Assembly: GCF_058153355.1 (NCBI RefSeq) | Contig: NZ_CM177019.1 | Strand: one strand, 5' to 3' | Length of the DNA stretch: 64,000 bases | Part shown: positions 7,898 through 58,134 of the stretch, in pieces | Layout: the number at the start of each line of letters is the position of its first letter | Position numbering within the stretch: the first letter of the stretch is position 1 | Notes under the pieces: model-generated | Seen by the model: the letters and a program-made list of their open reading frames with translations, nothing else | What the model was told of the DNA's origin: nothing | Databases searched by the model: none | Position numbers and translations under genes: made by a program

Positions 7898-9202
<1,305 letters not shown>

Positions 9203-23817: not shown

Positions 23818-23826
23818 AGCCGCCTC

Positions 23827-27630: not shown

Positions 27631-27649
27631 CCCGTTGTAAAGTGAGGAT

Positions 27650-29654: not shown

Positions 29655-29821
29655 AACGATCTCCATATCTACCAGCGATACATTACGAGTAACCAACGAA
29701 AGACAAAACTGAAAAATGCCATTAACAAATGATTTCAGAATAAATTCATACTAAATATTAATTAATTACTGATATATATAGATGTGAATTATCCCCCACC
29801 CGGTCAGGCAGGGGATAACGT

Positions 29822-31276: not shown

Positions 31277-31347
31277 ATCGATCGTTCCTTAAAAAAATGC
31301 CCGGTATCGCTACCGATAACCGGGCCAACGGACTGCACAGTTAGCCG

Positions 31348-32670: not shown

Positions 32671-33035
32671 ATTGAACTCCATAATCAGGTAATGCCGCGG
32701 GTGATGGATGATGTCGTAATATTGGGCACTCCCTTTCAGTTGCTCAATTATGTTATTTCACACTGCTATTGAGATAATTCACAAGTGTGCGCTCGCTCGC
32801 AAAATAAAATGGAATGATGAAACTGGGTAATTCCTCGAAGAGAAAAATGCAATAAGTACAATTGCGCAACAAAAGTAAGATCTCTGTCATAAATCAAGAA
32901 ATAAACCAAAAATCGTAATCGAAAGATAAAAATCTGTAATTGTTTTCCCCTGTTTAGTTGCTAAAAATTGGTTACGTTTATCGCGGTGATTGTTACTTAT
33001 TAAAGCTGTCCTCTAACTACAGAAGGCCCTACACC
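32671..33035. promoter_or_regulatory. divergent xylAB / xylFGH promoter region (XylR and CRP control)
   Basis: 365-bp AT-rich divergent intergenic region; assignment by position and established xyl regulon architecture; sites not individually mapped. Confidence 0.5.
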
Positions 33036-34028: not shown

Positions 34029-34105
34029 GCGTTACGCCCCGGCACAGAGCGGGGGCGTGATTTCTCTCCATGCCGTGTAAATTAATTGGCTTAGGTGGAG
34101 TCGTT

Positions 34106-35647: not shown

Positions 35648-36806
35648 AGTGAAATTGGCCGTACCGACATCCGGTGGCTTTTCCGGGCTGAAGTCACTGA
35701 ATTTGCAGGTCTTCGTGATGATTGCAGCTATCATCGCAATCATGCTGTTCTTTACCTGGACCACCGATGGTGCCTACTTAAGCGCCCGTAACGTCTCCAA
35801 CCTGTTACGCCAGACCGCGATTACCGGCATCCTCGCGGTAGGAATGGTGTTCGTCATAATTTCTGCTGAAATCGACCTTTCCGTCGGCTCAATGATGGGG
35901 CTATTAGGTGGCGTCGCGGCGATTTGTGACGTCTGGCTAGGCTGGCCTTTGCCACTTACCATCATTGTGACGTTGGTTCTGGGACTGCTTCTCGGTGCCT
36001 GGAACGGATGGTGGGTTGCATACCGCAAAGTCCCTTCATTTATTGTCACCCTCGCGGGCATGTTGGCATTTCGCGGCATACTCATTGGCATCACCAACGG
36101 CACGACTGTATCCCCCACCAGCGCCGCGATGTCACAAATCGGGCAAAGCTATCTACCCGCCAGCACCGGCTTCATCATTGGCGCGCTTGGCTTAATGGCT
36201 TTTGTTGGCTGGCAATGGCGCGGAAGAATGCGCCGTCAGGCTTTGGGTTTGCAGTCTCCGGCCTCTACCGCAGTTGTCGGTCGCCAGGCATTAACGGCGA
36301 TTATCGTCTTAGGCGCAATCTGGCTGTTGAACGATTACCGTGGCGTTCCCACTCCTGTTCTGCTGCTGACGTTGCTGTTACTCGGCGGAATGTTTATGGC
36401 AACGCGGACGGCATTTGGAAGACGCATTTATGCCATCGGCGGCAATCTGGAAGCAGCACGGCTCTCCGGGATTAACGTTGAACGCACCAAACTTGCCGTG
36501 TTCGCTATTAACGGATTAATGGTAGCCATCGCCGGATTAATCCTCAGTTCTCGACTTGGCGCAGGTTCACCTTCTGCGGGAAATATCGCCGAACTGGACG
36601 CAATTGCCGCATGTGTGATTGGCGGCACCAGTCTGGCAGGCGGAGTCGGGAGCGTGGCCGGAGCAGTAATGGGGGCATTCATCATGGCTTCACTGGATAA
36701 CGGCATGAGTATGATGGATGTACCGACCTTCTGGCAGTATATCGTTAAAGGTGCGATTCTGTTGCTGGCAGTATGGATGGACTCCGCAACCAAACGCCGT
36801 TCTTGA
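35625..36806 (+). CDS. xylH: D-xylose ABC transporter permease
   Basis: 393 aa multi-TM permease overlapping xylG stop. Confidence 0.93.
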
Positions 36807-36825
36807 TTTTGATAAAAATTTTCTC

Positions 36826-36859
36826 AAAACCGGTAACGTATTACCGGTTTTGAGTTTTT
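36826..36859 (+). terminator. xylFGH intrinsic terminator
   Basis: Hairpin aaaaccggtaacgtattaccggtttt followed by gagttttt. Confidence 0.6.
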
Positions 36860-36883
36860 GCATGATTCAGCAGGAAAAGAACC

Positions 36884-38062
36884 ATGTTTACTAAACGTCA
36901 CCGCATCACATTGCTGTTCAATGCTAATAAAGCCTATGACCGTCAGGTAGTAGAAGGCGTAGGGGAATATTTACAGGCGTCACAATCGGAATGGGATATT
37001 TTCATTGAAGAAGATTTCCGCGCCCGCATTGATAAAATCAAGGACTGGTTAGGAGATGGCGTCATTGCCGACTTCGATGACAAACAAATCGAGCAAGCAC
37101 TGGCTAACGTCGACGTCCCCATTGTTGGGGTTGGTGGTTCGTATCACCTTGCCGAAAGTTACCCACCCGTTCATTACATTGCCACCGATAACTATGCACT
37201 GGTTGAAAGCGCATTTTTGCATTTAAAAGAGAAAGGCGTTAACCGCTTTGCTTTTTATGGTCTTCCGGAATCCAGCGGCAAACGTTGGGCCACTGAACGC
37301 GAATATGCATTCCGTCAGCTTGTCGCCGAAGAAAAGTATCGCGGAGTGGTTTATCAGGGGTTAGAAACAGCGCCAGAGAACTGGCAACACGCGCAAAATC
37401 GGCTGGCAGACTGGCTACAAACGCTGCCGCCGCAAACCGGGATCATTGCCGTTACTGACGCCCGGGCGCGGCACATTCTGCAAGTATGCGAACATCTGCA
37501 TATTCCTGTGCCGGAAAAATTATGTGTGATTGGCATCGATAACGAAGAACTTACCCGCTATCTGTCGCGTGTCGCTCTTTCTTCGGTCGCTCAGGGCGCG
37601 CGGCAAATGGGATATCAGGCGGCAAAACTGTTGCATCGATTATTAGATAAAGAAGAAATGCCGCTACAGCGGATTTTGGTCCCACCAGTTCGCGTCATTG
37701 AACGGCGCTCAACAGATTACCGTTCGCTGACCGATCCCGCCGTTATTCAGGCCATGCATTACATTCGTAATCACGCCTGTAAAGGGATTAAAGTGGATCA
37801 GGTACTCGATGCCGTCGGGATCTCTCGCTCCAATCTTGAGAAGCGTTTTAAAGAAGAGGTGGGTGAAACCATCCATGCCATGATTCATGCCGAGAAGCTG
37901 GAAAAAGCGCGCAGTCTGCTGATTTCAACCACCTTATCGATCAATGAGATATCGCAAATGTGCGGTTATCCATCGCTGCAATATTTCTACTCTGTTTTTA
38001 AAAAAGCATATGACACGACGCCAAAAGAGTATCGCGATGTAAATAGCGAGGTCATGTTGTAG
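36884..38062 (+). CDS. xylR: xylose operon AraC-family transcriptional activator
   Basis: 392 aa; periplasmic-binding-like sensor domain plus C-terminal AraC HTH. Confidence 0.93.
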   Translation: MFTKRHRITLLFNANKAYDRQVVEGVGEYLQASQSEWDIFIEEDFRARIDKIKDWLGDGVIADFDDKQIEQALANVDVPIVGVGGSYHLAESYPPVHYIATDNYALVESAFLHLKEKGVNRFAFYGLPESSGKRWATEREYAFRQLVAEEKYRGVVYQGLETAPENWQHAQNRLADWLQTLPPQTGIIAVTDARARHILQVCEHLHIPVPEKLCVIGIDNEELTRYLSRVALSSVAQGARQMGYQAAKLLHRLLDKEEMPLQRILVPPVRVIERRSTDYRSLTDPAVIQAMHYIRNHACKGIKVDQVLDAVGISRSNLEKRFKEEVGETIHAMIHAEKLEKARSLLISTTLSINEISQMCGYPSLQYFYSVFKKAYDTTPKEYRDVNSEVML

Positions 38063-38077
38063 CGATGATGAGAATTG

Positions 38078-38160
38078 TCGGCGTCGCATCAGGCAACGCT
38101 GCGTGGTTGTCGCATGCGACGTGAACGCCTTATCCGACCAACAAGTCGGATAAGGCTTCA
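38078..38160. repeat. REP elements between xylR and bax
   Basis: Palindromic units gcgtcgcatcaggcaacgctgcg... / gcgacgtgaacgccttatccgacc. Confidence 0.6.
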
Positions 38161-38170
38161 GGGAATACAA

Positions 38171-38995
38171 TTACATATGCGCCGCGATTAACCGTTGGTT
38201 ATCCTGGTACATTGCGAACAGGTAGTTGTTATAACTCTTCCCTTTGGTCGAGTAGCCCTTCAGCTTGTGAATCATCGCTGTGGCAGTCACTTCCTGATCC
38301 GCTTTACGCAGTTGTGCACGCGATTTACGGAACGAAGAGTAAGCCGGGTGAGTATTCAGGTTAGTGACATAGGCGCTCACCGATTCTTTGACAGAACTAA
38401 ACTGTGAGTACCCCTTCACTTTACCCGGCGCATTGGTACAACGTCCTTTCATGCACTTCATGCCGAATAGGTTGTTGTTGCTACGCGCCAGCTTCGACGT
38501 TCCCCAACCGCTTTCTGCTGCAGCCATCGTCGCCACCATACTGGTAGGAATAATGTCTACGCGTTCCAGCAAGGTATTCCACGGGATTTTTCGCGTATTA
38601 CCAGACCACTTCACCTTGTAGCGTTTGGCGATGTCTTTCAGACGCGCACGCTCAGCAGGTGACCATTGGCCCTGATACTGTTTTGAAATGAGCCAGTTAC
38701 GTTCCTCAGTAATGGCCGCATTTTGGCTGGTAATGTAAGGCATTACGGTCCGGAGAAACGCTTTTTTCCTTGGTGTTCCGGAAGGGTATTTTCGCAAATC
38801 AGGAAGTGAACTACTCTTTGCACTATTGCGAGAATACTCTTGTTTACTGCTTACCTGTTTATTACTAGCTTTAATTAAGTGGGACTTTTGACTCGCTGTT
38901 GTTGTGTGCGTCTTCGCTAACACCTCACTCGAAAACACCAGAGTGAGTAACATAAGAATCATCGCCCCATATCGTCGTATGGGAGTCAAAATCAT
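38171..38995 (-). CDS. bax: Bax protein (putative glucosaminidase domain)
   Basis: 274 aa with signal peptide and C-terminal glucosaminidase-like domain. Confidence 0.85.
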   Translation of the reverse strand: MILTPIRRYGAMILMLLTLVFSSEVLAKTHTTTASQKSHLIKASNKQVSSKQEYSRNSAKSSSLPDLRKYPSGTPRKKAFLRTVMPYITSQNAAITEERNWLISKQYQGQWSPAERARLKDIAKRYKVKWSGNTRKIPWNTLLERVDIIPTSMVATMAAAESGWGTSKLARSNNNLFGMKCMKGRCTNAPGKVKGYSQFSSVKESVSAYVTNLNTHPAYSSFRKSRAQLRKADQEVTATAMIHKLKGYSTKGKSYNNYLFAMYQDNQRLIAAHM

Positions 38996-39219
38996 CAGGT
39001 CTCCTGGTCGGATTTAATCATTCCAACACCTTATATTTTTCACAAATTTGAGAGTTGAATCTCAAATCATATCAAAAATAGCCGTCAAGAGCACCCCAAG
39101 GAATAGTCCAAATCTGAAACTATGTCACGTGTTAACGATTCAGATTGGCGCTAAATCGCAGAAAATGTGGGGTTTATCGCAAAATTCAGCCGTTTTTTGC
39201 GCGCGATCGCTCACCCTTG

Positions 39220-39256
39220 CTTCTCATCCTGTGGACTTACCGCTCAGGGATGAGTT
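39220..39256 (+). promoter_or_regulatory. malS promoter region with MalT-box-like GGATGA motifs
   Basis: ctcatcc (39223-39229, reverse GGATGAG) and gggatgag (39248-39255) 60-90 bp upstream of the malS ATG. Confidence 0.45.
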
Positions 39257-39314
39257 TTGTCTAGCTTATCGCTGGCAAACTGTCTGAAATCGCAGCAATA
39301 AGGACTCATCCGCC

Positions 39315-41345
39315 ATGAAACTCGCCGCCTGTTTTCTGACACTCCTTCCTGGCTTCGCCGTTGCCGCCAGCTGGACTTCTCCGGGGTTCCCTGCCTTTAG
39401 CGAACAGGGAACGGGAACATTTGTCAGCCACGCGCAGTTGCCCAAAGGTACGCGTCCACTAACGCTAAATTTTGACCAACAGTGCTGGCAGCCTGCGGAT
39501 GCGATAAAACTCAATCAGATGCTTTCCCTGCAACCTTGTAGCAACACGCCACCTCAATGGCGATTGTTCAGGGACGGCGAATATACGCTGCAACTAGACA
39601 CCCGCTCCGGTACACCAACATTGATGATTTCCATCCAGAACGCCGTCGAACCGGTAGCAAGCCTGGTCCGTGAATGCCCGAAATGGGATGGATTACCGCT
39701 CACACTGGATGTCAGCGCCACTTTTCCGGAGGGAGCCGCAGTCCGGGATTATTACAGCCAGCAAATTGCGATAGTGAAGAACGGTCAAATAACGTTACAA
39801 CCCGCTGCCACCAGCAACGGTTTACTCCTGCTGGAACGGGCAGAAACTGACACATCCGCCCCTTTCGACTGGCATAACGCCACGGTTTACTTTGTGCTGA
39901 CAGATCGTTTCGAAAACGGCGATCCCAGTAATGACCAGAGTTACGGACGCCATAAAGACGGTATGGCAGAAATTGGAACTTTTCACGGCGGCGATTTACG
40001 CGGCCTGACCAACAAACTGGATTACCTCCAGCAGCTGGGCGTCAATGCTTTATGGATAAGTGCCCCATTTGAGCAAATTCACGGCTGGGTCGGCGGCGGT
40101 ACAAAAGGCGATTTCCCGCATTATGCCTACCACGGTTATTACACACAGGACTGGACGAATCTTGATGCCAATATGGGCAGCGAAGCCGATCTCCGGACGC
40201 TGGTTGATAGCGCGCATCAGCGCGGTATTCGTATTCTCTTTGATGTCGTGATGAACCACACCGGCTATGCCACACTGGCGGATATGCAGGAGTATCAGTT
40301 TGGCGCGTTATACCTTTCTGGTGATGAGCTGAAAAAAACGTTAGGTGACCGCTGGAGCGACTGGAAGCCCGCCGCCGGGCAAACCTGGCATAGCTTTAAC
40401 GATTACATTAATTTCAGCGACAAAACAGGCTGGGATAAATGGTGGGGAAAAAACTGGATCAGAACGGATATCGGCGACTACGACAATCCTGGATTTGACG
40501 ATCTCACCATGTCGCTGGCCTTTTTACCGGATATCAAAACCGAATCAACTACCGCTTCTGGCCTGCCAGTGTTCTATAACAACAAAACGGATACCCACGC
40601 TAAAGCCATTGACGGCTTTACCCCTCGAGATTACTTAACCCATTGGTTAAGCCAGTGGGTCCGTGACTACGGAATTGATGGTTTTCGGGTCGATACCGCC
40701 AAGCATGTTGAGTTGCCCGCCTGGCAGCAACTGAAAACCGAAGCCAGCGCCGCACTTCGCGAATGGAAAAAAGCGAATCCCGATAAAGCGTTAGATGACA
40801 CACCGTTCTGGATGACCGGTGAAGCCTGGGGCCACGGCGTGATGCAAAGTGACTACTATCGCCACGGCTTCGATGCGATGATCAATTTCGATTATCAGGA
40901 GCAGGCGGCTAAAGCAGTCGATTGTCTGGCGCAGATGGATACGACCTGGCAGCAAATGGCAGAGAAATTGCAGGATTTCAACGTGTTGAGCTATCTTTCG
41001 TCGCATGATACCCGCCTGTTTCGTGAAGGGGGCGACAAAGCAGCAGAGTTATTGTTATTAGCGCCAGGCGCAGTACAAATCTTTTATGGTGATGAATCCT
41101 CTCGTCCGTTCGGTCCTACCGGTTCTGATCCGCTGCAAGGCACGCGTTCGGATATGAACTGGCAGGATGTTAACGGTAAATCTGCCGCTAGCGTCGCGCA
41201 CTGGCAGAAAATCAGCCAGTTCCGCGCCCGCCATCCCGCAATTGGCGCGGGCAAACAAACGACACTTTCGCTGAAGCAGGGCTACGGCTTTGTTCGTGAG
41301 CATGGCGACGATAAAGTGCTGGTCATCTGGGCTGGGCAACAGTGA
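39315..41345 (+). CDS. malS: periplasmic alpha-amylase
   Basis: 676 aa; signal peptide; GH13 catalytic motifs (GFRVDTAKH, FDVVMNHTG). Confidence 0.95.
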   Translation: MKLAACFLTLLPGFAVAASWTSPGFPAFSEQGTGTFVSHAQLPKGTRPLTLNFDQQCWQPADAIKLNQMLSLQPCSNTPPQWRLFRDGEYTLQLDTRSGTPTLMISIQNAVEPVASLVRECPKWDGLPLTLDVSATFPEGAAVRDYYSQQIAIVKNGQITLQPAATSNGLLLLERAETDTSAPFDWHNATVYFVLTDRFENGDPSNDQSYGRHKDGMAEIGTFHGGDLRGLTNKLDYLQQLGVNALWISAPFEQIHGWVGGGTKGDFPHYAYHGYYTQDWTNLDANMGSEADLRTLVDSAHQRGIRILFDVVMNHTGYATLADMQEYQFGALYLSGDELKKTLGDRWSDWKPAAGQTWHSFNDYINFSDKTGWDKWWGKNWIRTDIGDYDNPGFDDLTMSLAFLPDIKTESTTASGLPVFYNNKTDTHAKAIDGFTPRDYLTHWLSQWVRDYGIDGFRVDTAKHVELPAWQQLKTEASAALREWKKANPDKALDDTPFWMTGEAWGHGVMQSDYYRHGFDAMINFDYQEQAAKAVDCLAQMDTTWQQMAEKLQDFNVLSYLSSHDTRLFREGGDKAAELLLLAPGAVQIFYGDESSRPFGPTGSDPLQGTRSDMNWQDVNGKSAASVAHWQKISQFRARHPAIGAGKQTTLSLKQGYGFVREHGDDKVLVIWAGQQ

Positions 41346-41521
41346 CTTTCCGGCTTCCCGTTCGTCAGTACCTCGGGAAGCCGCCAACCAGGATAAAATG
41401 TCAGCCCTAATCAGAGTTGCAGGATAAAGCACCGCTCCCTCTTCAACAGAGCGATTTGCACCCCAGCAAATGTAGCGTTATTGTTACCTTCCTTGCTACA
41501 GAGTTCGACAGATATCCCGCT

Positions 41522-42775
41522 ATGACATTCTCCCTTTTTGGTGACAAATTTACCCGCCACTCCGGCATTACGCTGCTGATGGAAGATCTGAACGACGGTT
41601 TACGCACGCCTGGCGCGATTATGCTCGGCGGCGGTAATCCAGCGCAGATCCCGGAAATGCAGGACTACTTCCAGACGCTACTGACCGACATGCTGGAAAG
41701 TGGCAAAGCGACTGATGCACTGTGCAATTACGACGGTCCACAGGGGAAAACGGAGCTACTCACACTGCTTGCCGGAATGCTACGCGAGAAGTTGGGTTGG
41801 GATATCGAACCACAGAATATTGCACTAACAAACGGCAGCCAGAGCGCGTTTTTCTACTTATTTAATCTGTTCGCCGGACGCCGTGCCGATGGTCGGATCA
41901 AAAAAGTGCTGTTTCCGCTGGCACCGGAATACATTGGCTACGCTGACGCCGGACTGGAAGAAGATCTGTTTGTCTCTGCGCGTCCGAATATTGAACTGCT
42001 GCCGGAAGGCCAGTTTAAATACCACGTTGATTTTGAGCATCTGCATATTGGCGAAGAAACCGGGATGATTTGCGTCTCCCGGCCGACGAATCCAACAGGC
42101 AATGTGATTACTGACGAAGAGTTGCTGAAGCTTGACGCGCTGGCGAATCAACACGGCATTCCGCTGGTGATTGATAACGCTTATGGCGTCCCGTTCCCGG
42201 GTATCATCTTCAGCGAAGCGCGCCCGCTGTGGAATCCGAATATCGTACTGTGCATGAGTCTTTCCAAGCTGGGTCTACCAGGCTCCCGCTGCGGCATTAT
42301 CATCGCCAATGAAAAAATCATCACCGCCATCACCAATATGAACGGCATTATCAGCCTTGCACCTGGCGGTATTGGTCCAGCGATGATGTGTGAAATGATT
42401 AAGCGTAACGATCTGCTGCGCCTGTCTGAAACAGTCATCAAACCGTTTTACTACCAGCGTGTTCAGGAAACTATCGCCATCATTCGCCGCTATTTACCAG
42501 AAGATCGCTGCCTGATTCATAAACCCGAAGGGGCCATTTTTCTCTGGCTATGGTTTAAGGATTTGCCAATTACGACCGAGCAGCTTTACCAGCACCTGAA
42601 ATCGCGCGGCGTGCTAATGGTACCGGGGCACAACTTCTTCCCAGGGCTGGATAAACCGTGGCCACATACACATCAATGTATGCGCATGAACTACGTGCCG
42701 GAGCCGGAGAAAATTGAGGCGGGTGTGAAGATTCTGGCAGAAGAGATAGAAAGAGCCTGGGCTGAAAGTCATTAA
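41522..42775 (+). CDS. avtA: valine--pyruvate aminotransferase
   Basis: ORF 41417-42775; start MTFSLFGDKFTRHSG at ATG 41522 gives 417 aa; PLP aminotransferase motif SLSKLG. Confidence 0.93.
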   Translation: MTFSLFGDKFTRHSGITLLMEDLNDGLRTPGAIMLGGGNPAQIPEMQDYFQTLLTDMLESGKATDALCNYDGPQGKTELLTLLAGMLREKLGWDIEPQNIALTNGSQSAFFYLFNLFAGRRADGRIKKVLFPLAPEYIGYADAGLEEDLFVSARPNIELLPEGQFKYHVDFEHLHIGEETGMICVSRPTNPTGNVITDEELLKLDALANQHGIPLVIDNAYGVPFPGIIFSEARPLWNPNIVLCMSLSKLGLPGSRCGIIIANEKIITAITNMNGIISLAPGGIGPAMMCEMIKRNDLLRLSETVIKPFYYQRVQETIAIIRRYLPEDRCLIHKPEGAIFLWLWFKDLPITTEQLYQHLKSRGVLMVPGHNFFPGLDKPWPHTHQCMRMNYVPEPEKIEAGVKILAEEIERAWAESH

Positions 42776-42780
42776 AAATT

Positions 42781-44029
<1,249 letters not shown>

Positions 44030-45831: not shown

Positions 45832-46830
45832 ATGAAAGTCACATTTGAGCAGTTAAAAGCAGCCTTTAATCGGGTCTTAATTTCACGCGGTGTTGACAGC
45901 GAAACGGCTGATGCCTGTGCAGAGATGTTCGCCCGCACCACCGAATCCGGTGTTTATTCTCACGGTGTTAACCGCTTCCCACGCTTCATCCAACAATTGG
46001 ATAATGGCGATATCATTCCTGACGCCCAAGCCAAACGTATAACCAGCCTCGGCGCAATTGAACAGTGGGACGCCCAGCGTTCGATCGGTAACCTGACAGC
46101 GAAAAAGATGATGGATCGCGCCATTGAACTGGCTGCCGATCACGGTATTGGTCTGGTGGCGTTGCGTAATGCCAACCACTGGATGCGCGGCGGCAGCTAC
46201 GGCTGGCAGGCGGCGGAAAAAGGCTATATTGGCATTTGCTGGACCAACTCCATCGCCGTAATGCCGCCGTGGGGCGCAAAAGAGTGTCGCATCGGCACTA
46301 ACCCGCTGATCGTCGCCATTCCTTCTACCCCAATCACCATGGTCGATATGTCGATGTCGATGTTTTCCTACGGCATGTTAGAAGTTAACCGCCTTGCAGG
46401 TCGTCAGCTCCCGGTCGATGGCGGCTTTGACGATGAAGGCAATCTCACCAAAGAACCTGGTGTAATCGAGAAAAATCGCCGTATTTTGCCAATGGGTTAC
46501 TGGAAAGGTTCCGGTATGTCGATCGTATTGGATATGATCGCTACTCTTCTTTCTGACGGCGCGTCAGTTGCTGAAGTCACCCAGGATAACAGCGACGAAT
46601 ACGGTGTTTCGCAAATCTTTATCGCCATTGAAGTGGACAAGCTTATCGACGGCCCCACCCGCGATGCCAAGCTGCAACGCATCATGGATTATGTTACTAC
46701 CGCTGAACGCGCCGATGAAAACCAGGCCATTCGCTTACCCGGCCACGAATTTACCACCCTGCTGGCAGAAAACCGCCGTAACGGTATTACCGTTGATGAC
46801 AGCGTATGGGCAAAAATCCAGGCGTTATAA
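45832..46830 (+). CDS. yiaK: 2,3-diketo-L-gulonate reductase
   Basis: 332 aa Ldh_2 family oxidoreductase; first gene of the operon. Confidence 0.88.
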
Positions 46831-46838
46831 GGAGATAA

Positions 46839-47309
<471 letters not shown>

Positions 47310-47426
47310 TCGAATAATCGTCTACGCCAGAACGCCTGGGTAATGTTATTGCTCTAACTATATTAATAATTCAGGTTGCTGCACATGCAACTTGAATTAT
47401 GACAAACATAGCCTCAAGGAATAGCT

Positions 47427-47901
47427 ATGAAAAAAAATACTTGAAGCAATACTGGCGATTAATCTCGCCGTACTTTCCTGTATTGTGTTTATAAACATTA
47501 TTTTAAGATATGGTTTTCAGACAAGTATTTTATCTGTAGATGAATTGTCGCGTTATTTATTTGTCTGGTTAACCTTTATTGGCGCGATTGTGGCTTTTAT
47601 GGATAACGCCCACGTTCAGGTTACCTTTCTGGTGGAGAAACTCTCCCCCGCGTGGCAGCGACGAGTCGCTCTGGTTACCCACGCCTTAATATTATTTATT
47701 TGTGGCGCACTGGCCTGGGGCGCAACGCTAAAAACAATTCAGGACTGGAGCGATTATTCACCGATCCTCGGCTTGCCCATCGGCCTGATGTATGCCGCTT
47801 GTCTGCCCACCAGCCTCGTTATCGCATTCTTTGAGCTGCGCCTTTTATATCAACTCATCACGCGTAGCAATTCTCTAACGCCGCCACCGCAAGGAGCTTA
47901 A
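47427..47901 (+). pseudogene. yiaM: TRAP transporter small permease YiaM, apparent +1 frameshift in A-run at codon 2-4
   Basis: ATG 47427 followed by 8 A (47430-47437) leads to a stop at 47442-47444; with 7 A the frame reads [15 protein letters not shown]... continuous with ORF 47485-47901. Confidence 0.65.
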
Positions 47902-47903
47902 TC

Positions 47904-49181
47904 ATGGCTGTGCTGATTTTTCTGGGCTGCCTGTTGGGTGGCATTGCCATCGGTTTGCCTATTGCCTGGTCGCTACTGTTGTGCGGGGCGGCGCTTATGT
48001 TCTGGCTGGATATGTTTGATGTCCAGATCATGGCGCAAACGCTGGTAAACGGTGCTGACAGCTTCTCCCTGCTGGCGATTCCGTTCTTTGTACTGGCGGG
48101 TGAAATCATGAATGCGGGCGGCTTATCAAAACGCATTGTTGACCTGCCGATGAAACTGGTCGGGCATAAACCAGGCGGGTTGGGCTACGTAGGCGTGCTG
48201 GCGGCAATGATTATGGCGAGCCTTTCCGGTTCTGCTGTTGCGGATACCGCCGCCGTTGCCGCGCTACTGGTGCCGATGATGCGCAGCGCTAACTACCCGG
48301 TCAACCGTGCTGCGGGGCTGATTGCCTCTGGCGGGATTATCGCGCCAATTATTCCCCCTTCCATTCCGTTTATTATCTTCGGTGTTTCCAGCGGATTATC
48401 CATCAGTAAGTTGTTTATGGCGGGAATTGCCCCAGGCATTATGATGGGCGCAACGCTGATGCTCACATGGTGGTGGCAGGCCAGTCGTCTTAATTTACCC
48501 CGTCAGCAAAAAGCAACGAAACGAGAAATCTGGCACTCTTTTGTTTCCGGTATCTGGGCGCTATTTCTTCCGGTCATTATTATTGGCGGCTTTCGCTCCG
48601 GTCTGTTTACCCCTACCGAAGCCGGGGCCGTTGCTGCTTTCTATGCGTTATTTGTCGCCACGGTTATTTACCGTGAAATGACCTTCGCCACACTTTGGCA
48701 TGTACTTATTGGCGCGGCGAAAACCACCTCAGTGGTAATGTTTCTGGTAGCTTCGGCACAAGTTTCCGCCTGGCTAATTACCATTGCTGAACTGCCAATG
48801 ATGGTTTCTGATTTACTGCAACCGTTAGTGGAATCACCGCGTCTGCTGTTTATCGTTATTATGCTGGCGATTTTGATAGTCGGTATGGTAATGGATTTAA
48901 CGCCGACGGTGTTAATTCTTACCCCGGTATTAATGCCTTTAGTTAAAGAGGCAGGAATCGATCCGATTTACTTCGGAGTCATGTTTATCATCAACTGCTC
49001 AATCGGCTTAATTACACCGCCTATCGGTAATGTGCTTAACGTTATTTCAGGGGTGGCTAAACTCAAATTCGATGATGCAGTCAGAGGCGTTTTCCCTTAC
49101 GTCCTGGTTTTATATTCCTTATTAGCCTTATTTGTTTTTATTCCCGATCTCATCATCCTCCCGTTGAAATGGATTAATTAA
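47904..49181 (+). CDS. yiaN: TRAP transporter large permease (DctM-like)
   Basis: 425 aa multi-TM DctM family protein. Confidence 0.9.
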   Translation: MAVLIFLGCLLGGIAIGLPIAWSLLLCGAALMFWLDMFDVQIMAQTLVNGADSFSLLAIPFFVLAGEIMNAGGLSKRIVDLPMKLVGHKPGGLGYVGVLAAMIMASLSGSAVADTAAVAALLVPMMRSANYPVNRAAGLIASGGIIAPIIPPSIPFIIFGVSSGLSISKLFMAGIAPGIMMGATLMLTWWWQASRLNLPRQQKATKREIWHSFVSGIWALFLPVIIIGGFRSGLFTPTEAGAVAAFYALFVATVIYREMTFATLWHVLIGAAKTTSVVMFLVASAQVSAWLITIAELPMMVSDLLQPLVESPRLLFIVIMLAILIVGMVMDLTPTVLILTPVLMPLVKEAGIDPIYFGVMFIINCSIGLITPPIGNVLNVISGVAKLKFDDAVRGVFPYVLVLYSLLALFVFIPDLIILPLKWIN

Positions 49182-49193
49182 AAGGAAAATATA

Positions 49194-50180
49194 ATGAAAT
49201 TACGCTCTGTAACCTACGCATTATTCATTGCTGGCCTCGCTGCATTCAGTACGTCTTCGCTGGCGGCACAATCATTACGTTTCGGTTATGAAACCTCACA
49301 AACCGACTCACAACATATTGCAGCGAAAAAATTTAATGAATTATTACAGGAGAGAACCAAAGGCGAGCTGAAATTAAAACTGTTCCCGGACAGTACTCTC
49401 GGCAACGCACAAGCGATGATCAGCGGCGTGCGTGGCGGCACTATTGATATGGAGATGTCTGGCTCGAATAACTTTGCCGGATTATCACCTGTGATGAACC
49501 TGCTGGATGTTCCTTTCCTGTTCCGCGATACCGCCCACGCGCATAAAACACTCGACGGCAAAGTCGGCGATGAACTGAAGGCCTCCCTTGAAGGTAAGGG
49601 ACTGAAAGTACTGGCCTACTGGGAAAACGGCTGGCGCGATGTCACCAACTCACGCCAACCGGTTAAAACGCCTGGCGACCTGAAAGGGCTGAAAATCCGC
49701 ACCAACAACAGCCCGATGAATATCGCCGCATTTAAAGTATTTGGCGCTAACCCTATCCCGATGCCGTTTGCCGAAGTCTATACCGGACTGGAAACACGCA
49801 CTATCGACGCTCAGGAACATCCCATCAACGTCGTCTGGTCGGCAAAATTTTATGAAGTGCAGAAGTACCTATCTCTGACTCACCATGCCTATTCCCCGCT
49901 TCTGGTAGTGATCAACAAAGCGAAATTTGATGGCTTAAGCCCGGAGTTCCAGCAAGCGCTAATTTCATCTGCGCAAGAAGCGGGTAATTACCAGCGCAAA
50001 TTGGTCGCCGAAAATCAGCAAAAAATCATCGACGGCATGAAAGACGCTGGCGTGGAAGTCATCACCGAACTTGATCGCAAAGCCTTTAGCGACGTACTGG
50101 GTACTCAGGTCCGCGACATGTTTGTAAAAGATGTTCCGCAGGGCGATGAACTGCTGAAAGCCGTGGATGAGGTGCAATAA
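49194..50180 (+). CDS. yiaO: TRAP transporter periplasmic solute-binding protein (2,3-diketo-L-gulonate)
   Basis: 328 aa; signal peptide; DctP family. Confidence 0.9.
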   Translation: MKLRSVTYALFIAGLAAFSTSSLAAQSLRFGYETSQTDSQHIAAKKFNELLQERTKGELKLKLFPDSTLGNAQAMISGVRGGTIDMEMSGSNNFAGLSPVMNLLDVPFLFRDTAHAHKTLDGKVGDELKASLEGKGLKVLAYWENGWRDVTNSRQPVKTPGDLKGLKIRTNNSPMNIAAFKVFGANPIPMPFAEVYTGLETRTIDAQEHPINVVWSAKFYEVQKYLSLTHHAYSPLLVVINKAKFDGLSPEFQQALISSAQEAGNYQRKLVAENQQKIIDGMKDAGVEVITELDRKAFSDVLGTQVRDMFVKDVPQGDELLKAVDEVQ

Positions 50181-50183
50181 GCC

Positions 50184-51680
50184 ATGACGCAATACTGGCT
50201 GGGGTTAGATTGTGGCGGAAGCTGGCTAAAAGCCGGACTGTATGACCGCGAAGGCCGGGAGGCAGGCGTGCAGCGCCTGCCGCTGTGCGCATTAAGCCCG
50301 CAGCCAGGCTGGGCAGAGCGCGATATGGAAGAACTGTGGCAATGCTGCATGGCTGTCATTCGCGCCCTGCTTACCCATTCCAGCGTTAGCGGGGAGCAAA
50401 TTGTCGGCATCGGTATCTCCGCACAGGGAAAGGGCTTGTTTTTGCTGGATAAAAACGACAAGCCGCTCGGTAACGCCATTTTGTCCTCGGATCGCCGGGC
50501 GATGGAAATCGTTCGTCGCTGGCAGGAAGATAGCATCCCGGAAAAACTCTACCCGCTGACCCGACAAACCTTGTGGACCGGGCATCCGGTGTCGCTGTTA
50601 CGCTGGCTGAAAGTGCACGAACCAGAACGCTACGCGCAAATTGGCTGCGTGATGATGACGCACGACTACCTGCGTTGGTGTTTAACCGGCGTCAAAGGCT
50701 GTGAAGAGAGCAATATTTCCGAATCCAATCTCTACAACATGAGTCGCGGGGAATATGACCCGTGCCTCACCGACTGGCTGGGGATCAGTGAAATCAATCA
50801 CGCCCTGCCGCCTGTTGTTGGATCTGCCGAAATCTGCGGGGAAATCACCGCTCAGACAGCCGCACTGACCGGTCTGCAAGCGGGTACGCCCGTTGTCGGC
50901 GGCCTGTTTGATGTGGTTTCTACCGCACTCTGCGCCGGAATCGAAGACGAATTTACCCTCAATGCGGTGATGGGGACCTGGGCGGTGACCAGCGGCATAA
51001 CCTGCGGTTTACGTGACGGTGAAGCGCATCCGTATGTCTATGGTCGCTACGTTAACGATGGTGAATTTATCGTTCACGAAGCCAGCCCTACCTCTTCCGG
51101 CAATCTCGAATGGTTTACCGCGCAGTGGGGAGAAATCTCGTTTGCAGAGATCAACCAGGCTGTTGCCAGCTTACCGAAAGCCGGTGGCGATCTCTTTTTC
51201 CTGCCGTTCCTGTACGGCAGCAACGCCGGACTCGAGATGACCAGCGGTTTCTACGGGATGCAGGCCATTCACACCCGCGCACACCTGTTGCAGGCCATTT
51301 ATGAAGGCGTGGTGTTCAGCCATATGACCCACCTCAACCGGATGCGCGAACGTTTTACTGATGTGCACACCCTGCGCGTCACTGGCGGCCCGGCGCACTC
51401 CGATGTCTGGATGCAAATGCTGGCGGACGTTAGCGGACTGCGTATCGAACTGCCGCAGGTGCAAGAAACGGGCTGTTTTGGCGCGGCGCTTGCCGCCCGC
51501 GTCGGCACCGGAGTTTATCGCGATTTCAGCGAAGCCCAGCGCGATCAACAGCACCCGGTGCGTACCCTGTTACCGGATATGACCGCCCATCAGCTTTACC
51601 AACAAAAATACCAACGCTATCAGCACCTCATTGCCGCACTACAGGGCTTTCATGCCCGCGTTAAGGAGAACACATTATGA
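50184..51680 (+). CDS. lyxK: L-xylulose/3-keto-L-gulonate kinase
   Basis: 498 aa FGGY-family carbohydrate kinase. Confidence 0.9.
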   Translation: MTQYWLGLDCGGSWLKAGLYDREGREAGVQRLPLCALSPQPGWAERDMEELWQCCMAVIRALLTHSSVSGEQIVGIGISAQGKGLFLLDKNDKPLGNAILSSDRRAMEIVRRWQEDSIPEKLYPLTRQTLWTGHPVSLLRWLKVHEPERYAQIGCVMMTHDYLRWCLTGVKGCEESNISESNLYNMSRGEYDPCLTDWLGISEINHALPPVVGSAEICGEITAQTAALTGLQAGTPVVGGLFDVVSTALCAGIEDEFTLNAVMGTWAVTSGITCGLRDGEAHPYVYGRYVNDGEFIVHEASPTSSGNLEWFTAQWGEISFAEINQAVASLPKAGGDLFFLPFLYGSNAGLEMTSGFYGMQAIHTRAHLLQAIYEGVVFSHMTHLNRMRERFTDVHTLRVTGGPAHSDVWMQMLADVSGLRIELPQVQETGCFGAALAARVGTGVYRDFSEAQRDQQHPVRTLLPDMTAHQLYQQKYQRYQHLIAALQGFHARVKENTL

Positions 51681-52339
51681 GCAGACCACTTCTGCAACTG
51701 GCCCTCGACCACTCATCACTTGAAGCCGCACAGCGCGACGTTACGCTGTTAAAAGACAGCGTCGATATCGTCGAAGCAGGCACTATTCTCTGTTTAAACG
51801 AAGGGCTTGGCGCGGTGAAAGCCTTGCGCGAACAGTGCCCGGACAAAATCATCGTTGCTGACTGGAAGGTCGCCGATGCTGGTGAAACGCTCGCGCAACA
51901 GGCGTTTGGCGCAGGCGCTAACTGGATGACCATCATCTGCGCCGCACCGCTCGCGACGGTGGAAAAAGGCCACGCGATGGCGCAACGCTGCGGTGGTGAA
52001 ATCCAGATAGAGCTTTTTGGTAACTGGACGCTGGACGACGCCCGCGACTGGCATCGTATTGGCGTGCGGCAGGCGATTTATCATCGTGGTCGTGACGCGC
52101 AGGCCAGCGGGCAACAGTGGGGCGAAGCCGATCTGGCACGCATGAAGGCGCTTTCCGATATCGGCCTTGAGCTTTCCATTACCGGCGGGATTACGCCTGC
52201 TGACCTGCCGCTGTTTAAAGATATCCGCGTGAAAGCGTTTATTGCCGGGCGGGCGCTGGCAGGCGCAGCAAATCCGGCACAGGTAGCTGCCGACTTCCAT
52301 GCGCAAATCGACGCTATCTGGGGAGGCGCGCGTGCGTAA
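51677..52339 (+). CDS. sgbH: 3-keto-L-gulonate-6-phosphate decarboxylase
   Basis: 220 aa OMP-decarboxylase-like family member. Confidence 0.9.
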
Positions 52340-53192
52340 TCATCCGTTAGGGATTTATGAAAAAGCGCTGGCGAAAGATCTCTCCTGGCCGGAGCGGCTG
52401 GTGCTGGCAAAAAGCTGCGGTTTTGATTTTGTCGAAATGTCGGTGGATGAAACCGACGAGCGTCTGTCGCGCCTTGACTGGAGCGCCGCACAAAGGACTT
52501 CGCTGGTTGCCGCGATGATCGAAACGGGTGTTGGGATCCCGTCGATGTGCCTGTCCGCACATCGTCGTTTTCCCTTTGGTAGCCGTGACGACGCGGCACG
52601 CCAGCGAGCACGGGAGATCATGAGTAAAGCAATTCGTCTGGCGCGCGATCTCGGTATTCGCACCATTCAACTGGCGGGCTACGACGTCTATTACGAAGCC
52701 CATGACGAAGGCACGCAGCAACGTTTTGCCGAAGGGCTGGCGTGGGCGGTTGAACAGGCAGCCGCCGCGCAGGTGATGCTGGCGGTGGAGATTATGGATA
52801 CTGCGTTTATGAACTCCATCAGCAAATGGAAAAAATGGGACGAGATACTCGCTTCGCCGTGGTTCACCGTCTACCCGGACGTCGGCAACCTTAGCGCCTG
52901 GGGCAATGATGTTCCCGCTGAACTGAAACTGGGCATTGACCGTATCGCCGCCATCCACCTGAAAGATACCCAGCCAGTGACCGAGCATAGCCCCGGACAG
53001 TTCCGCGACGTGCCGTTTGGCGAAGGCTGCGTCGATTTCGTTGGTATCTTCAAAACGCTGCATGAACTGAACTATCGCGGATCATTTCTGATTGAGATGT
53101 GGACCGAAAAAGCCAAAGAGCCGGTGCTGGAGATTATTCAGGCGCGGCGCTGGATTGAAGCGCGTATGCAGGAGGCCGGATTTATATGTTAG
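52332..53192 (+). CDS. sgbU: L-ribulose-5-phosphate 3-epimerase
   Basis: ORF 52299-53192; start [12 protein letters not shown] at GTG 52332 gives 286 aa; xylose-isomerase-like TIM barrel. Confidence 0.88.
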
Positions 53193-53680
53193 AGCGATTG
53201 AAAGCCGACGTGCTGGCGGCGAATCTGGCGCTTTATCGTCGCTATGCAGAAATTGGCGGTATTGTGCATACCCACTCGCGCCACGCCACCATCTGGTCAC
53301 AGGCCGGGCTGGATCTCCCCGCCTGGGGCACCACGCACGCCGATTATTTCTATGGTGCCATCCCCTGCACGCGACAGATGACCGCAGAGGAGATTAACGG
53401 CGAATATGAATATCAGACCGGCGAAGTGATCATTGAAACTTTCGAAGAACGCGGCAGGAGTCCGGCACAAATCCCGGCGGTATTGGTGCATTCTCACGGT
53501 CCGTTCGCCTGGGGCAATAACGCCGCCGATGCGGTGCATAATGCCGTGGTACTCGAAGAGTGCGCCTATATGGGCCTGTTCTCGCGCCAGCTTGCGCCGC
53601 AGCTTCCTGCGATGCAAAACGAACTTCTGGATAAGCATTACCTGCGTAAGCATGGGGCCAATGCCTATTACGGGCAGTAA
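53186..53680 (+). CDS. sgbE: L-ribulose-5-phosphate 4-epimerase SgbE with 67-codon in-frame internal deletion
   Basis: 164 aa instead of about 231; N-terminus [16 protein letters not shown] joins directly to [17 protein letters not shown], omitting the conserved N-terminal class II aldolase segment. Confidence 0.75.
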
Positions 53681-53711: not shown

Positions 53712-54527
53712 CTACGAATTGATATGTTCCTTGCTGTAACGTCGCTTCCACGCAGCTGGCGTTAAACCGGTGTGTTTGCGAAAAATCTGTCGGAAATAGC
53801 CAACGTCATTAAACCCGCACAACGCCGCCACTTCCGTGAGCGATCGCGCTTCGCTAATTAACAGCTTTTCGGCTTCGCGCACTCGCTGGCGGTGGATTGC
53901 TTCTGTTAACGTCAGATGAAACACCCGCCGATAGACACGCCCAAGATAATCGGCATTGCAGTACAGCTCGCGGGCTAAAAGCGCCGTAGAAAGCGGGCGA
54001 TGATATTGCGTGCGGATCAGTTTCTGCGCTTTCCAGGCAAGCGTGGTACCTGCGGCATCGGCCTGTTCATCAAGACGCGCGTCACGGGTGAGTTGCTGCA
54101 AAATCAGCAGCACAATAAACTCCAGCGCCGGAGTGCGTTGATGCTTTTCCTGTTCGCTTAAGAACTGGCGAAACAGGGCCACCAGCGCCTGCGGATCGGC
54201 AACCTTCGTTTGTTGCGGCACGCTAAGATGAGTGAGCCAGCGCGGGTCGCTATCCGGCGCTTTAACCTCAAAATGCAGCCAGTAAAATTTGAGATCGGCG
54301 GGAAAATCCTCTACCCCAACATGCTGTCGGTTCGGCCAGAGTAATAAACTCTCTCCCGCATCGACCAGAAATATCCGCTCTTCTTCCTGAATCGTTAATC
54401 GACCTTTTTCGACAAAGATAATTTCCCATGACTCCAGCCGCCTTGCCGGATGCCTCCCTACGCCACGGGAAATAAATAATCCACCATTTTGCACTTTAAT
54501 CGGTAACGTCATGGATAATTCGAGCAT
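53712..54527 (-). CDS. AraC-family transcriptional regulator (cupin sensor domain plus HTH)
   Basis: 271 aa; C-terminal AraC HTH signature (GFNDVGYFRQIFRKHTGLTPAAWKRR); divergent from transporter gene. Confidence 0.85.
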   Translation of the reverse strand: MLELSMTLPIKVQNGGLFISRGVGRHPARRLESWEIIFVEKGRLTIQEEERIFLVDAGESLLLWPNRQHVGVEDFPADLKFYWLHFEVKAPDSDPRWLTHLSVPQQTKVADPQALVALFRQFLSEQEKHQRTPALEFIVLLILQQLTRDARLDEQADAAGTTLAWKAQKLIRTQYHRPLSTALLARELYCNADYLGRVYRRVFHLTLTEAIHRQRVREAEKLLISEARSLTEVAALCGFNDVGYFRQIFRKHTGLTPAAWKRRYSKEHINS

Positions 54528-54752
54528 TGATATGTAATTTCCCGCTTATTCATTAATGATTAAACACATTACCTTTTGATTATTAATCAAAAACATTAAT
54601 TTCACCTGATCCAATTCACACTTTTAAATTCAGGTCGGAATCGTCACCTTTTTTTACTCTTTTCTCGCCTTGTTGATATTCCCGTTCACGGCAGAATTAA
54701 TCATGTCATTTCAATAAAACTAAAAATTGCTCCCTATGCACGAGGAATATCT

Positions 54753-56153
54753 ATGACCTCTACACCGATTACTACCGCTGATATCGCTAAAGGTAAAATT
54801 GACGATGCGTTATCTGTACGGGAAAAAATAGGCTACGGCCTGGGTGACGCAGGCGGCACCGTAATAACTTGCCTGATCATGAACTTTCTCACCTTTTTCT
54901 ACACCGACGTTTTTGGCTTAACTCCGGCGCTGGTCGGCACGCTGTTTATTGCACTGCGCGTGTTTGATGCCATCTCCGACCCGGTGATGGGCGTCATTGC
55001 CGACCGGACGCAAAGCCGCTGGGGGCGTTTTCGTCCGTGGCAGCTATGGATTGCCGTCCCTATTGGCATTATCGGCATCCTGACGTTCACCGTACCGGAC
55101 GCCAGTATGGGGGTGAAGATCGCCTGGGCGTTCGGCACCTATCTGCTGCTTTCCGTCGGTTATACCGCCATCAACGTGCCGTACTGCGCGCTGATCAACA
55201 CCATGACGACCCGCCACAATGAGGTAATTTCGTGCCAGTCCTGGCGATTCGTTCTCTGCGGCGTAGCGGGATTTCTGGTTTCGGTTGGCCTGCCGTGGAT
55301 GGTAGATCTCTTCGGTCAGGGTAATGCCGCGCGCGGCTATCAACTGGGCGTCGGCGTGCTGTGCGCCATCGCTGTGGTGATGTTCCTGTGCTGTTTCTTC
55401 TGGGTTCGTGAACGGGTGCCACTCTCCACAATGGGGAAATTTACCCTGCGCGAACATCTTGCCGGGCTGCGAAACAACGACCAACTGCTGCTGATGCTGG
55501 TCATGTCTTTCCTGCTGATTAACGTCTTTAATATTCGCGGCGGTGGGTATATGTACTTCATTACCTACGTCTTACAAGGCAGTACGGGCTACACGTCGCT
55601 GTTCTTCACTATGGTCACCTTCGCCTCCATTATCGGCTCGGTGATTGTCAGCCCGTTAACGCGACGTTTCGATACCGTCAAAATTTACTACTACACCAAC
55701 CTGCTCCTCGCCGCGCTGGCGGTGTTGATGTGGTTCCTGCCTTCTGGCCCGGCTTATCAAACGCTGTGGCTGGCGGTGATCCTTGGTAATGGCGTGATTC
55801 TTGGCTTCACATTGCCATTGCACTTCTCATTGATGGCCTTTGCCGATGACTACGGCGAGTGGAAAACCCGCGTACGTTCTTCCGGCATGAACTTCGCCTT
55901 CAATCTGTTTTTCATCAAGCTGGCCTGGGCCTCCAGCGCCGGGATCATCAGCCTGCTGTTTATTTTTGTCGCCTACCAGCCTGGCGTGGAAAACCAGACC
56001 GCCAGTTCGCTTGGCGGGATCGCGGCGATGGAAACATTGCTGCCTGCGCTGTTCCACCTGCTGCTGGCGATGGCGATCCGCTTTTGCAAACTCAATAACC
56101 CTATGATGTCACGCATTGCTAGCGACCTGCGTCAGCGTCATGTACAGCCTTAA
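54753..56153 (+). CDS. GPH-family glycoside-pentoside-hexuronide:cation symporter
   Basis: 466 aa, 12 TM; MelB/YicJ-like N-terminal motif ([24 protein letters not shown]). Confidence 0.85.
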
Positions 56154-56163
56154 GGAGCACAAG

Positions 56164-58134
56164 ATGAACATTTCGGAAGTCGATCTGCATAAACTGACGG
56201 TCAGCGATCCGTTCCTCGGTCAGTACCAACAACTGGTCCGCGACGTGGTGATTCCTTATCAGTGGGATGCCTTGAACGATCGTATCCCAGAAGCGGAACC
56301 CAGCCATGCGATTGAAAACTTTCGCATTGCCGCAGGACTGCAAGACGGTGAATTTTACGGGATGGTGTTTCAGGACAGCGACGTCGCCAAATGGCTGGAA
56401 GCGGTAGCCTGGTCGCTGTGCCAGAAGCCGGATGCCGAACTGGAAAAAACTGCTGACGAGGTAATCGAACTGGTCGCTTCCGCCCAGTGCGAAGATGGCT
56501 ATCTCAATACTTACTTTACGGTAAAAGCGCCCGAAGAACGCTGGAGCAATCTGGCGGAGTGTCATGAACTTTACTGCGCCGGTCATCTGATTGAAGCCGG
56601 AGTCGCCTTCTTCCAGGCCACGGGCAAGCGGCGCTTGCTGGAAGTGGTTTGCCGTCTGGCCGATCATATCGACAGCGTATTTGGTCCAGGTGAAAGTAAG
56701 TTACACGGTTATCCTGGTCATCCGGAAATTGAACTGGCACTGATGCGCCTGTATGAAGTGACCGAAGAGCCGCGCTACCTGGCGCTGACGAACTATTTTG
56801 TCGAACAGCGTGGTGCGCAACCGCACTATTACGACTAGGAATATGAAAAGCGCGGGCAGACCTCGCACTGGCACACCTACGGCCCGGCGTGGATGGTGAA
56901 AGACAAAGCCTACAGCCAGGCACATTTGCCCATCGCACAGCAGCAAACCGCCATTGGTCACGCGGTACGTTTTGTCTACCTGATGACCGGCGTCGCGCAT
57001 CTCGCGCGTTTAAGTCACGATGAAAGCAAGCGTCAGGACTGCCTGCGGCTGTGGAACAATATGGCCCAGCGTCAGTTATATATTACCGGCGGCATTGGCT
57101 CACAAAGCAGCGGCGAAGCGTTCAGCAGCGATTACGATCTGCCGAATGACACGGTATACGCCGAAAGCTGTGCTTCCATCGGCCTGATGATGTTCGCCCG
57201 GCGAATGCTGGAAATGGAAGGCGACAGTCACTATGCCGATGTGATGGAGCGCGCACTGTACAACACCGTGCTCGGCGGCATGGCGCTGGATGGCAAACAT
57301 TTCTTCTATGTGAATCCGCTGGAAGTACATCCAAAATCGCTGAAATTCAACCATATCTACGATCACGTTAAGCCGATCCGCCAGCGTTGGTTTGGTTGCG
57401 CTTGTTGTCCGCCAAATATCGCCCGCGTGCTAACCTCGATTGGTCATTATCTCTACACGCCGCGTGAAGATGCGTTGTATATCAACATCTACGCAGGAAA
57501 CAGCATGGAAGTGCCGGTAGAAAATGGCACGCTGCGTCTGCGGGTTAGCGGAAACTATCCGTGGCAGGAACAGGTGACAATTGCGGTTGAATCGCCCCAG
57601 CCGGTGCGTCATACGCTGGCTTTACGTCTGCCGGACTGGTGCACACAGCCGCAGATTACATTGAATGGGGAAGAGGTCGAGCAGGATATTCGTAAAGGGT
57701 ATTTGCACATTACCCGCGAATGGCAGGAGGGCGACACGCTGAATCTGACTTTGCCAATGCCGGTACGTCGCGTTTACGGTAACCCGCTGGTGCGTCACGT
57801 CGCCGGAAAAGTGGCGATTCAGCGCGGCCCGCTGGTGTATTGCCTGGAACAGGCCGACAACGGCGAGTCACTGCATAACCTGTGGCTGCCCGCCGATGCG
57901 CCATTTACGACATTTGAAGGTAATGGATTGTTCCGCCATAAGATCTTAATCCAGGCACCGGGTTACCGGTATGAACAGAGCAATCCAGAGCAGCAACCGC
58001 TGTGGCATTACGACAGCGCGCCAGCCAAACGCCAGCCGCAAACTCTGACATTTATCCCGTGGTTTAGCTGGGCTAACCGGGGTGAAGGCGAAATGCGGAT
58101 CTGGGTGAATGAGGAAAACCAGTGCCATCCGTAG
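56164..58134 (+). pseudogene. GH127-like (DUF1680, beta-L-arabinofuranosidase family) glycoside hydrolase interrupted by in-frame TAG
   Basis: ORFs 56116-56838 and 56893-58134 are in the same frame, separated by TAG at 56836-56838; combined about 655 aa; RBS aaggag before ATG 56164. Confidence 0.7.

Follow-up and report, generated by a model that had tools for sequence, protein, structure and literature searches.

An in-frame 201-bp deletion at a short direct repeat truncates sgbE in a rare Escherichia coli lineage

The sgbE locus and its reading frame

The window considered here, meaning the whole 64-kb stretch of DNA that was analysed, carries on its plus strand an ATG-to-TAA open reading frame of 164 codons (53186-53680), as compared with 231 aa for the intact form of the encoded protein. 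The E. coli genome that matches best has, by its RefSeq annotation, the gene order yiaO-lyxK-ulaD(sgbH)-sgbU-araD(sgbE), after which come genes for a helix-turn-helix (AraC-type) regulator and an MFS transporter and then a GH127 gene. Judged by this gene order in an annotated relative, the 164-aa reading frame is therefore sgbE, which encodes a paralogue of L-ribulose-5-phosphate 4-epimerase at the end of the yiaK-S operon (for operon layout and the role of SgbE, see PMC6237786). The neighbours agree: the genes on the 5′ side match lyxK, sgbH (UlaD-type decarboxylase) and sgbU (L-ribulose-5-P 3-epimerase), the latter two by their NCBIfam families, and on the 3′ side a convergent AraC-type regulator precedes a GPH-family transporter. 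The best NCBIfam match of the product itself is NF009002 (E = 6.5e-102). Compared gene by gene with E. coli MFDS1022581, the operon genes 5′ of sgbE (45832-53192, plus strand) all have full-length reading frames except yiaM.

Translation signals are in place. A Shine-Dalgarno sequence, AGGAGG (53170-53175, plus strand), can be read 10 nt 5′ of the sgbE ATG, which overlaps the stop codon of sgbU (ATGTTAG) and matches the start position in the RefSeq annotation of the intact allele. With these signals intact, the truncated frame should be translatable whenever the operon is transcribed. The same locus, operon position and overlap with the sgbU stop are found for SgbE (YiaS) of K-12. Relative to K-12, the window protein lacks residues 17-83 (201 bp), and only two of the 164 retained residues differ. 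Indeed, comparison of the translation with the SgbE proteins of K-12 and E200086 resolved the product into residues 1-16 joined to residues 84-231 of the intact protein, so that both the reading frame and the junction lie exactly where the first-pass annotation, made from the sequence alone, had placed them. The retained part deviates by one to three residues from each of 11 intact SgbE alleles.

A 201-bp in-frame deletion at an 11-bp direct repeat

A 2,301-base query around sgbE covered 2,502 bases in its best E. coli matches, aligning in two pieces that are separated by 201 extra bases. Intact sgbE measures 696 nt (231 aa): ten of the E. coli alleles examined encode 231 aa and the eleventh is annotated at the same 696-nt length. 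What the window lacks is exactly 201 bp, or 67 codons in frame, that are present in all 11 of these alleles, which bears out the in-frame loss of 67 codons proposed earlier against an expected length of ~231 aa. Alignment to the AraD structures in the PDB (1jdi, 1k0w) broke into two blocks in the same way, query residues 1-18 pairing with 1-18 and residues 14-164 with 81-231 (E = 4e-79).

The boundaries coincide with a direct repeat. In the closest intact allele, the 11-bp sequence ATCTGGCGCTT occurs at gene positions 38 and 239, or 3924 and 4125 of the record, a spacing of 201 bp, with the first copy embedded in ...GCGA ATCTGGCGCTT CCCGCT... and the second in ...ACGC ATCTGGCGCTT TACCGT.... 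The window reads ...GCGA ATCTGGCGCTT TATCGT... at the junction, which in wider context is ...AATCTGGCGCTTTATCG..., and passes directly from codon 16 to codon 84. The sole surviving copy (53223-53233, plus strand) encodes (N)LAL, and the lost copy encoded (H)LAL. The two repeats are found 201 bp apart in 11 of 11 intact alleles, as a perfect 11-mer in ten of them and with 10 bp shared in K-12, whereas the window and both independent assemblies of the deletion allele (see below) hold one copy each. A short direct repeat had been suspected from the junction; the predicted ctggcgctt turned out to be the 3′ nine bases of ATCTGGCGCTT, the repeat being two bases longer than guessed. As both copies stand in the same frame (N-L-A-L and H-L-A-L) and are spaced by exactly the number of bases deleted (201 = 3 × 67), the reading frame was kept, making a 164-aa protein possible.

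Could the missing region be supplied from elsewhere? The 201-bp segment of the intact allele gave no meaningful match at any other place in the 64-kb window, and a tblastn search of the window revealed no sgbE paralogue. Since the deleted bases are absent elsewhere in the window, no alternative start, including one further upstream, restores the region, and a relocated segment can be discarded on the same grounds. Inspection of the junction sequence also revealed no IS remnant, target-site duplication, mobile-element or other foreign sequence.

Lost length, repeat spacing and the single remaining copy together form the pattern typical of a deletion between short direct repeats, a textbook type of mutation in bacteria for which RecA-independent slipped-strand mispairing is a known route in E. 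coli. Spontaneous lacI deletions between short direct repeats were reportedly described in E. coli by Albertini and colleagues in 1982. Deletions of the lacI type resemble the present case in that two perfect repeats flank the lost segment, one copy is kept and the length equals the spacing, but they are laboratory mutants whereas the sgbE deletion arose in nature and is fixed in a wild lineage. By analogy, an ancestral sgbE would have held ATCTGGCGCTT twice in one frame, 201 bp apart, and mispairing of the two copies would have removed one copy plus all sequence in between. Replication slippage or microhomology annealing after a break may have provided the occasion for mispairing, with the same sequence outcome from both. 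A stimulating hairpin, considered as a further point of comparison with lacI-type deletions, was not found in the deleted interval: folded as ssDNA, the interval in an intact allele was in no way unusual (z = -0.48 vs. shuffles), leaving hairpin-stimulated slippage unsupported. Intact sgbE holds three further 11-bp repeat pairs; the repeat thus accounts for the location of the deletion but not for its fixation.

A terminator-like site also spans the junction (53210-53240), consisting of a 7-bp stem with four GC pairs and then TTTATCGTCG. One such site was found where 0.6 were expected in shuffled sequence, and the candidate terminator (53210-53231) was dismissed as a chance-level match.

Conserved and structural elements of the truncated SgbE

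Residues 17-83 make up 29% of a single-domain protein. In an AlphaFold2 (AF2) model of the intact enzyme (pLDDT 97), secondary structure begins with a helix at 2-18, strands at 28-32, 38-41, 57-60 and 66-68, a helix at 77-86 and a strand at 92-95, and continues onward from there. According to this model, the deletion takes out four of seven strands (28-32, 38-41, 57-60 and 66-68) as well as most of the second helix (77-86), in keeping with the earlier suggestion that the N-terminal β-strands are gone. Conservation was assessed in an alignment of 42 full-length family members that are 41-99% identical to SgbE. Five of nine invariant columns are lost (G27, S30, K42, D76 and H80), along with eight of 31 nearly invariant ones (L21, N28, I41, P43, S44, G45, P73 and S74). 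The motifs GNVS (27-30), KPSG (42-45) and PSSD (73-76) all lie inside the deleted stretch. These motifs are said, in 2001 studies by Luo and by Samuel and their respective colleagues, to form the phosphate-binding pocket of AraD, in which we take N28, K42, S44, G45, S74 and S75 to bind the substrate phosphate; large Km defects were reportedly seen by Samuel and colleagues for the AraD variants N28A and K42M. Provided that these roles apply, the conserved phosphate-binding region has been lost from the window protein, as the first reading of the sequence had assumed.

Domain searches point in the same direction. The Pfam Aldolase_II match extends only over model positions 75-181 of 183, the first 74 being gone. 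NCBIfam matches cover positions 78-231 of 231, and all 4-epimerase models stay under their curated cut-offs, e.g. NF009002 with 339.7 bits (cut-off 386) and another 4-epimerase model with 284.9 (cut-off 389.1).

The remnant nonetheless keeps much of what has been implicated in catalysis. The zinc site of this enzyme group consists of three histidines and an acidic residue; in AraD, Asp76 was the residue first predicted to be catalytic, and Asp120 and Tyr229 were identified later (PMC5434028, citing Luo et al. 2001). In the 164-aa protein, the zinc ligands His95, His97 and His171 (AraD numbering), whose columns are invariant or nearly so, correspond to H28, H30 and H104, and the acid/base pair Asp120 and Tyr229 to D53 and Y162. 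AraD, a structurally and mechanistically characterised protein of the class II aldolase fold (1JDI, 1K0W), thus has its zinc histidines, Asp120 and Tyr229 conserved in the window SgbE, whereas its residues 19-80 find no counterpart there, and Asp76 is absent together with N28, K42, S44, G45, S74 and S75, the presumed pocket residues.

Taken by descent, the product is a member of the family, as evident from its homology to characterised members (AraD 1jdi, E = 4.2e-79), its locus, the zinc histidines and the catalytic pair Asp120 and Tyr229. Functionally, it falls short of membership in two defining features: the 164 residues do not comprise the complete class II aldolase domain (~231 aa), and they lack both Asp76 and the GNVS, KPSG and PSSD motifs. 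From the loss of strands, helix, conserved columns and Pfam positions we strongly infer a loss of activity, and the protein is probably misfolded. An inactive product had been considered probable at the outset, and the partial Pfam match (75-181 of 183) and the NCBIfam scores below cut-off favour that view. An AF2 prediction of the truncated protein, guided by the family alignment, reached a pLDDT of 94 with a continuous helix across the junction, so that a stable remnant is conceivable; as an alignment-guided model is no test of stability, it was given no weight either way.

Distribution of the allele and state of the surrounding genes

The exact 164-aa protein has been deposited before, as EGO8354242.1. 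At the nucleotide level, the 26,389-nt contig in GCA_015332025.1 showed one mismatch to the window in 12,495 nt, a 14,146-nt contig of the Logan assembly SRR31441161 showed none in 11,021 nt, and two further similar places were found beyond these. Gene neighbourhoods of the deletion allele were the same in the GCA_015332025.1 and Logan assemblies. Because the junction is shared by independent assemblies that are essentially base-identical, the deletion is genuine and lineage-specific; from their near-identity, these records represent a single clonal lineage sequenced several times. A junction-spanning 41-mer, which neither flank alone can seed, had no match in 5,426 complete E. coli genomes, as compared with matches in 3,231 of them for a control 41-mer located 30 nt downstream. 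Likewise, neither the exact junction 40-mer nor a codon-degenerate junction pattern was found among GTDB species-representative genomes, and the degenerate pattern had no match in JGI metagenomes.

Relative to the 11 intact alleles, the retained 495 nt contain no private nucleotide or amino-acid change; the nearest intact allele differs from them by five synonymous and one non-synonymous substitutions. As the retained part has gathered no private mutations, the event was probably recent. All eight listed contigs with an identical SgbU protein encode a 231-aa SgbE, but these contigs are only 96.3-98.9% identical to the window, and an immediate ancestor with intact sgbE was not found among these eight.

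For a census of other lesions, the window was compared with two complete E. coli genomes, which supplied 61 annotated entries as references. Not counted were both entries for IS621, a 166-aa ORF of doubtful status next to the upstream IS621 copy, yiaY, which falls beyond the window, and aldB, which is cut off at the window end. Of the 56 genes that remained, all wholly inside the window, four are disrupted (yhjY, yiaM, sgbE and GH127), with aldB at the window end as a fifth case. In yiaM, which encodes the small permease of a TRAP transporter, a homopolymer directly after the ATG (start region 47427-47437) has eight adenines (47430-47437, plus strand) instead of the seven in K-12 and most E. 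coli, which shifts the frame by +1 at codon 3/4; thereafter, a canonical start in frame first occurs as a GTG at 47485, from which 138 instead of 157 aa would be made. An ungapped match to the window across this tract was seen in at least one complete genome (2013C-3342). In the 656-aa GH127 gene (beta-L-arabinofuranosidase-like; 56164-58134, plus strand), part of the module just 3′ of sgbE, codon 225 has changed from CAG to TAG (56836-56838), and gene callers split the gene into fragments of 224 and 413 aa. Both the A8 tract and the TAG codon are identical in the two independent assemblies. On the minus strand, yhjY (13060-13759) appears to carry a +1 insertion at about 13582 that turns ACAACGA into ACAACAGA relative to E. 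coli C5, with the first stop at codon 69 of 232, and aldB, of which the 3′ part lies inside the window, is frameshifted by a 1-nt deletion at about 63662 (GCCAAATATC to GCCAATATC vs. the reference). The aldB lesion is located outside the span of the independent assemblies and may be a sequencing error.

Of the five lesions, the three in the yia/sgb locus and the module next to it recur in the independent assemblies, which confirms them. The frameshift in the TRAP small permease probably leaves the pathway unfed, in which case loss of the terminal epimerase would be neutral. Lesions beyond yia/sgb weaken the case for relaxed selection on this locus specifically, and given these lesions and the IS insertions (see below), general pseudogene accumulation is an equally valid description of the lineage.

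The same neighbourhood has deteriorated in other strains. In E. coli MFDS1022581, the closest complete genome over window positions 40-60 kb, yiaO is annotated as a pseudogene with an internal stop (23684-24670 of that record) and is intact in the window; operon decay in that strain is independent. Downstream of sgbE, the window has the AraC-type regulator, GPH transporter and GH127 (53712-58134), whereas K-12 retains only pseudogene remnants of this module between sgbE and yiaT (15533-15826 of the compared record). A query containing part of the module was covered to 80% or more in 1,889 of the 5,426 complete E. coli genomes, or roughly a third. The yiaO stop of MFDS1022581 and the module loss of K-12 together show that the neighbourhood decays repeatedly in E. 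coli.

With a probability of roughly 90%, we consider sgbE in this rare E. coli lineage to have undergone a recent, repeat-mediated deletion of 201 bp within a decaying locus, leaving a remnant that is most likely dead. Misfolded or blind to its substrate, the product would be catalytically inert and sgbE in effect a pseudogene of the lineage, lost neutrally from a pathway that may have been dispensable or already disabled.

It is scarcely credible that full-length sgbE is real and that 201 bp were lost to repeat collapse in sequencing or assembly. Assemblers do sometimes collapse sequence at repeats such as those that bound the deletion, and among the other lesions of the window are single-base indels, which sequencing errors can produce; yet an 11-bp repeat is below any usual assembly k-mer or read, and the same junction recurred in an independent assembly from NCBI and in Logan assemblies of public reads, with zero to one base different over 11-12.5 kb and on contigs of different extent (26,389 and 14,146 nt vs. 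the 64 kb of the window). Just as little credence goes to another route to the same deletion, by gene conversion or recombination with araD or ulaF or by imprecise excision of a mobile element. The ~75% nucleotide identity of sgbE to araD (PMC12636600 / bioRxiv 10.1101/2025.10.31.685825) makes exchange between paralogues conceivable, and the strain has active-looking IS elements (IS621 twice and one of the IS66 family). However, both junction flanks are of the sgbE type without private or araD-like bases, the clean junction described above bears no trace of an insertion element, and the lost length matches the repeat spacing exactly with one copy left.

A functional 164-aa product, be it a weak epimerase, a subunit co-assembling with AraD or UlaF, or a protein with a new role, is very unlikely. 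Frame, Shine-Dalgarno sequence and translational coupling to sgbU are all intact, the retained part is free of disabling mutations, the five zinc and acid/base residues are kept, and AF2 models the remnant confidently. Against this, a lack of further mutations is equally expected from a recent neutral deletion; the losses of 29% of a single domain, of four of seven modelled strands and of five of nine invariant columns are severe; and the residues gone include those reportedly binding phosphate in the work of Samuel and colleagues (2001). Moreover, the allele belongs to one clonal lineage, with no recurrence in the 5,426 complete genomes, GTDB representatives or JGI metagenomes, and the yiaM frameshift in the same operon suggests that the pathway is unused. 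Co-assembly could take a dominant-negative form, or Asp120 and Tyr229 might be donated in trans across the subunit interface. Since the C-terminal two-thirds persist, and with them all zinc and acid/base residues named above and a large part of the tetramer interface, the remnant could join the ~70%-identical AraD or UlaF and poison or modulate L-arabinose or L-ascorbate catabolism; that it is a selected regulatory or dominant-negative allele of this kind is more doubtful still.

Under the favoured interpretation of a dead remnant, the sgbE case is an ordinary lineage-specific gene inactivation, with gene, fold and mutational mechanism already known. It has little significance beyond strain-level annotation and neither opens nor closes a standing question, but offers a clean natural example of deletion between 11-bp direct repeats. 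Together, the lesions in sgbE, yiaM and GH127 document how the yiaK-S locus (2,3-diketo-L-gulonate / L-xylulose) is decaying in this rare lineage of E. coli. For annotation, the deposited EGO8354242.1 is named plainly 'L-ribulose-5-phosphate 4-epimerase [Escherichia coli]', with no sign that 29% of the domain is missing; given this normal epimerase name, metabolic reconstructions of the lineage would wrongly count a working SgbE.

Elsewhere in the window, yiaA and yiaB, neighbours in the reference, are separated by an insertion (26858-29221) with three ORFs (142, 115 and 523 aa) of the kind found in IS66-family elements. It reaches up to the 5′ end of yiaA; the alignment of that gene begins only at reference nt 9, without the canonical start. 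The transposase gene of IS621 (IS110-like) is present in two copies, one between dppA and eptB upstream of dppA (8173-9153) and one between avtA and ysaA (43000-43980); the references carry one each at the same sites, C5 at dppA/eptB and MFDS1022581 at avtA/ysaA. Identity to complete E. coli genomes, taken gene by gene at the nucleotide level, forms a mosaic ranging from 93 to 100% (window 1-24000 vs. 29800-42800), with 93-98% for dpp, eptB, yhjX, bisC and glyS, 97-99% (mostly about 99%) from xylB to malS, and 99.4-100% from yiaT to hicA. This pattern suggests a divergent backbone with recombined segments.
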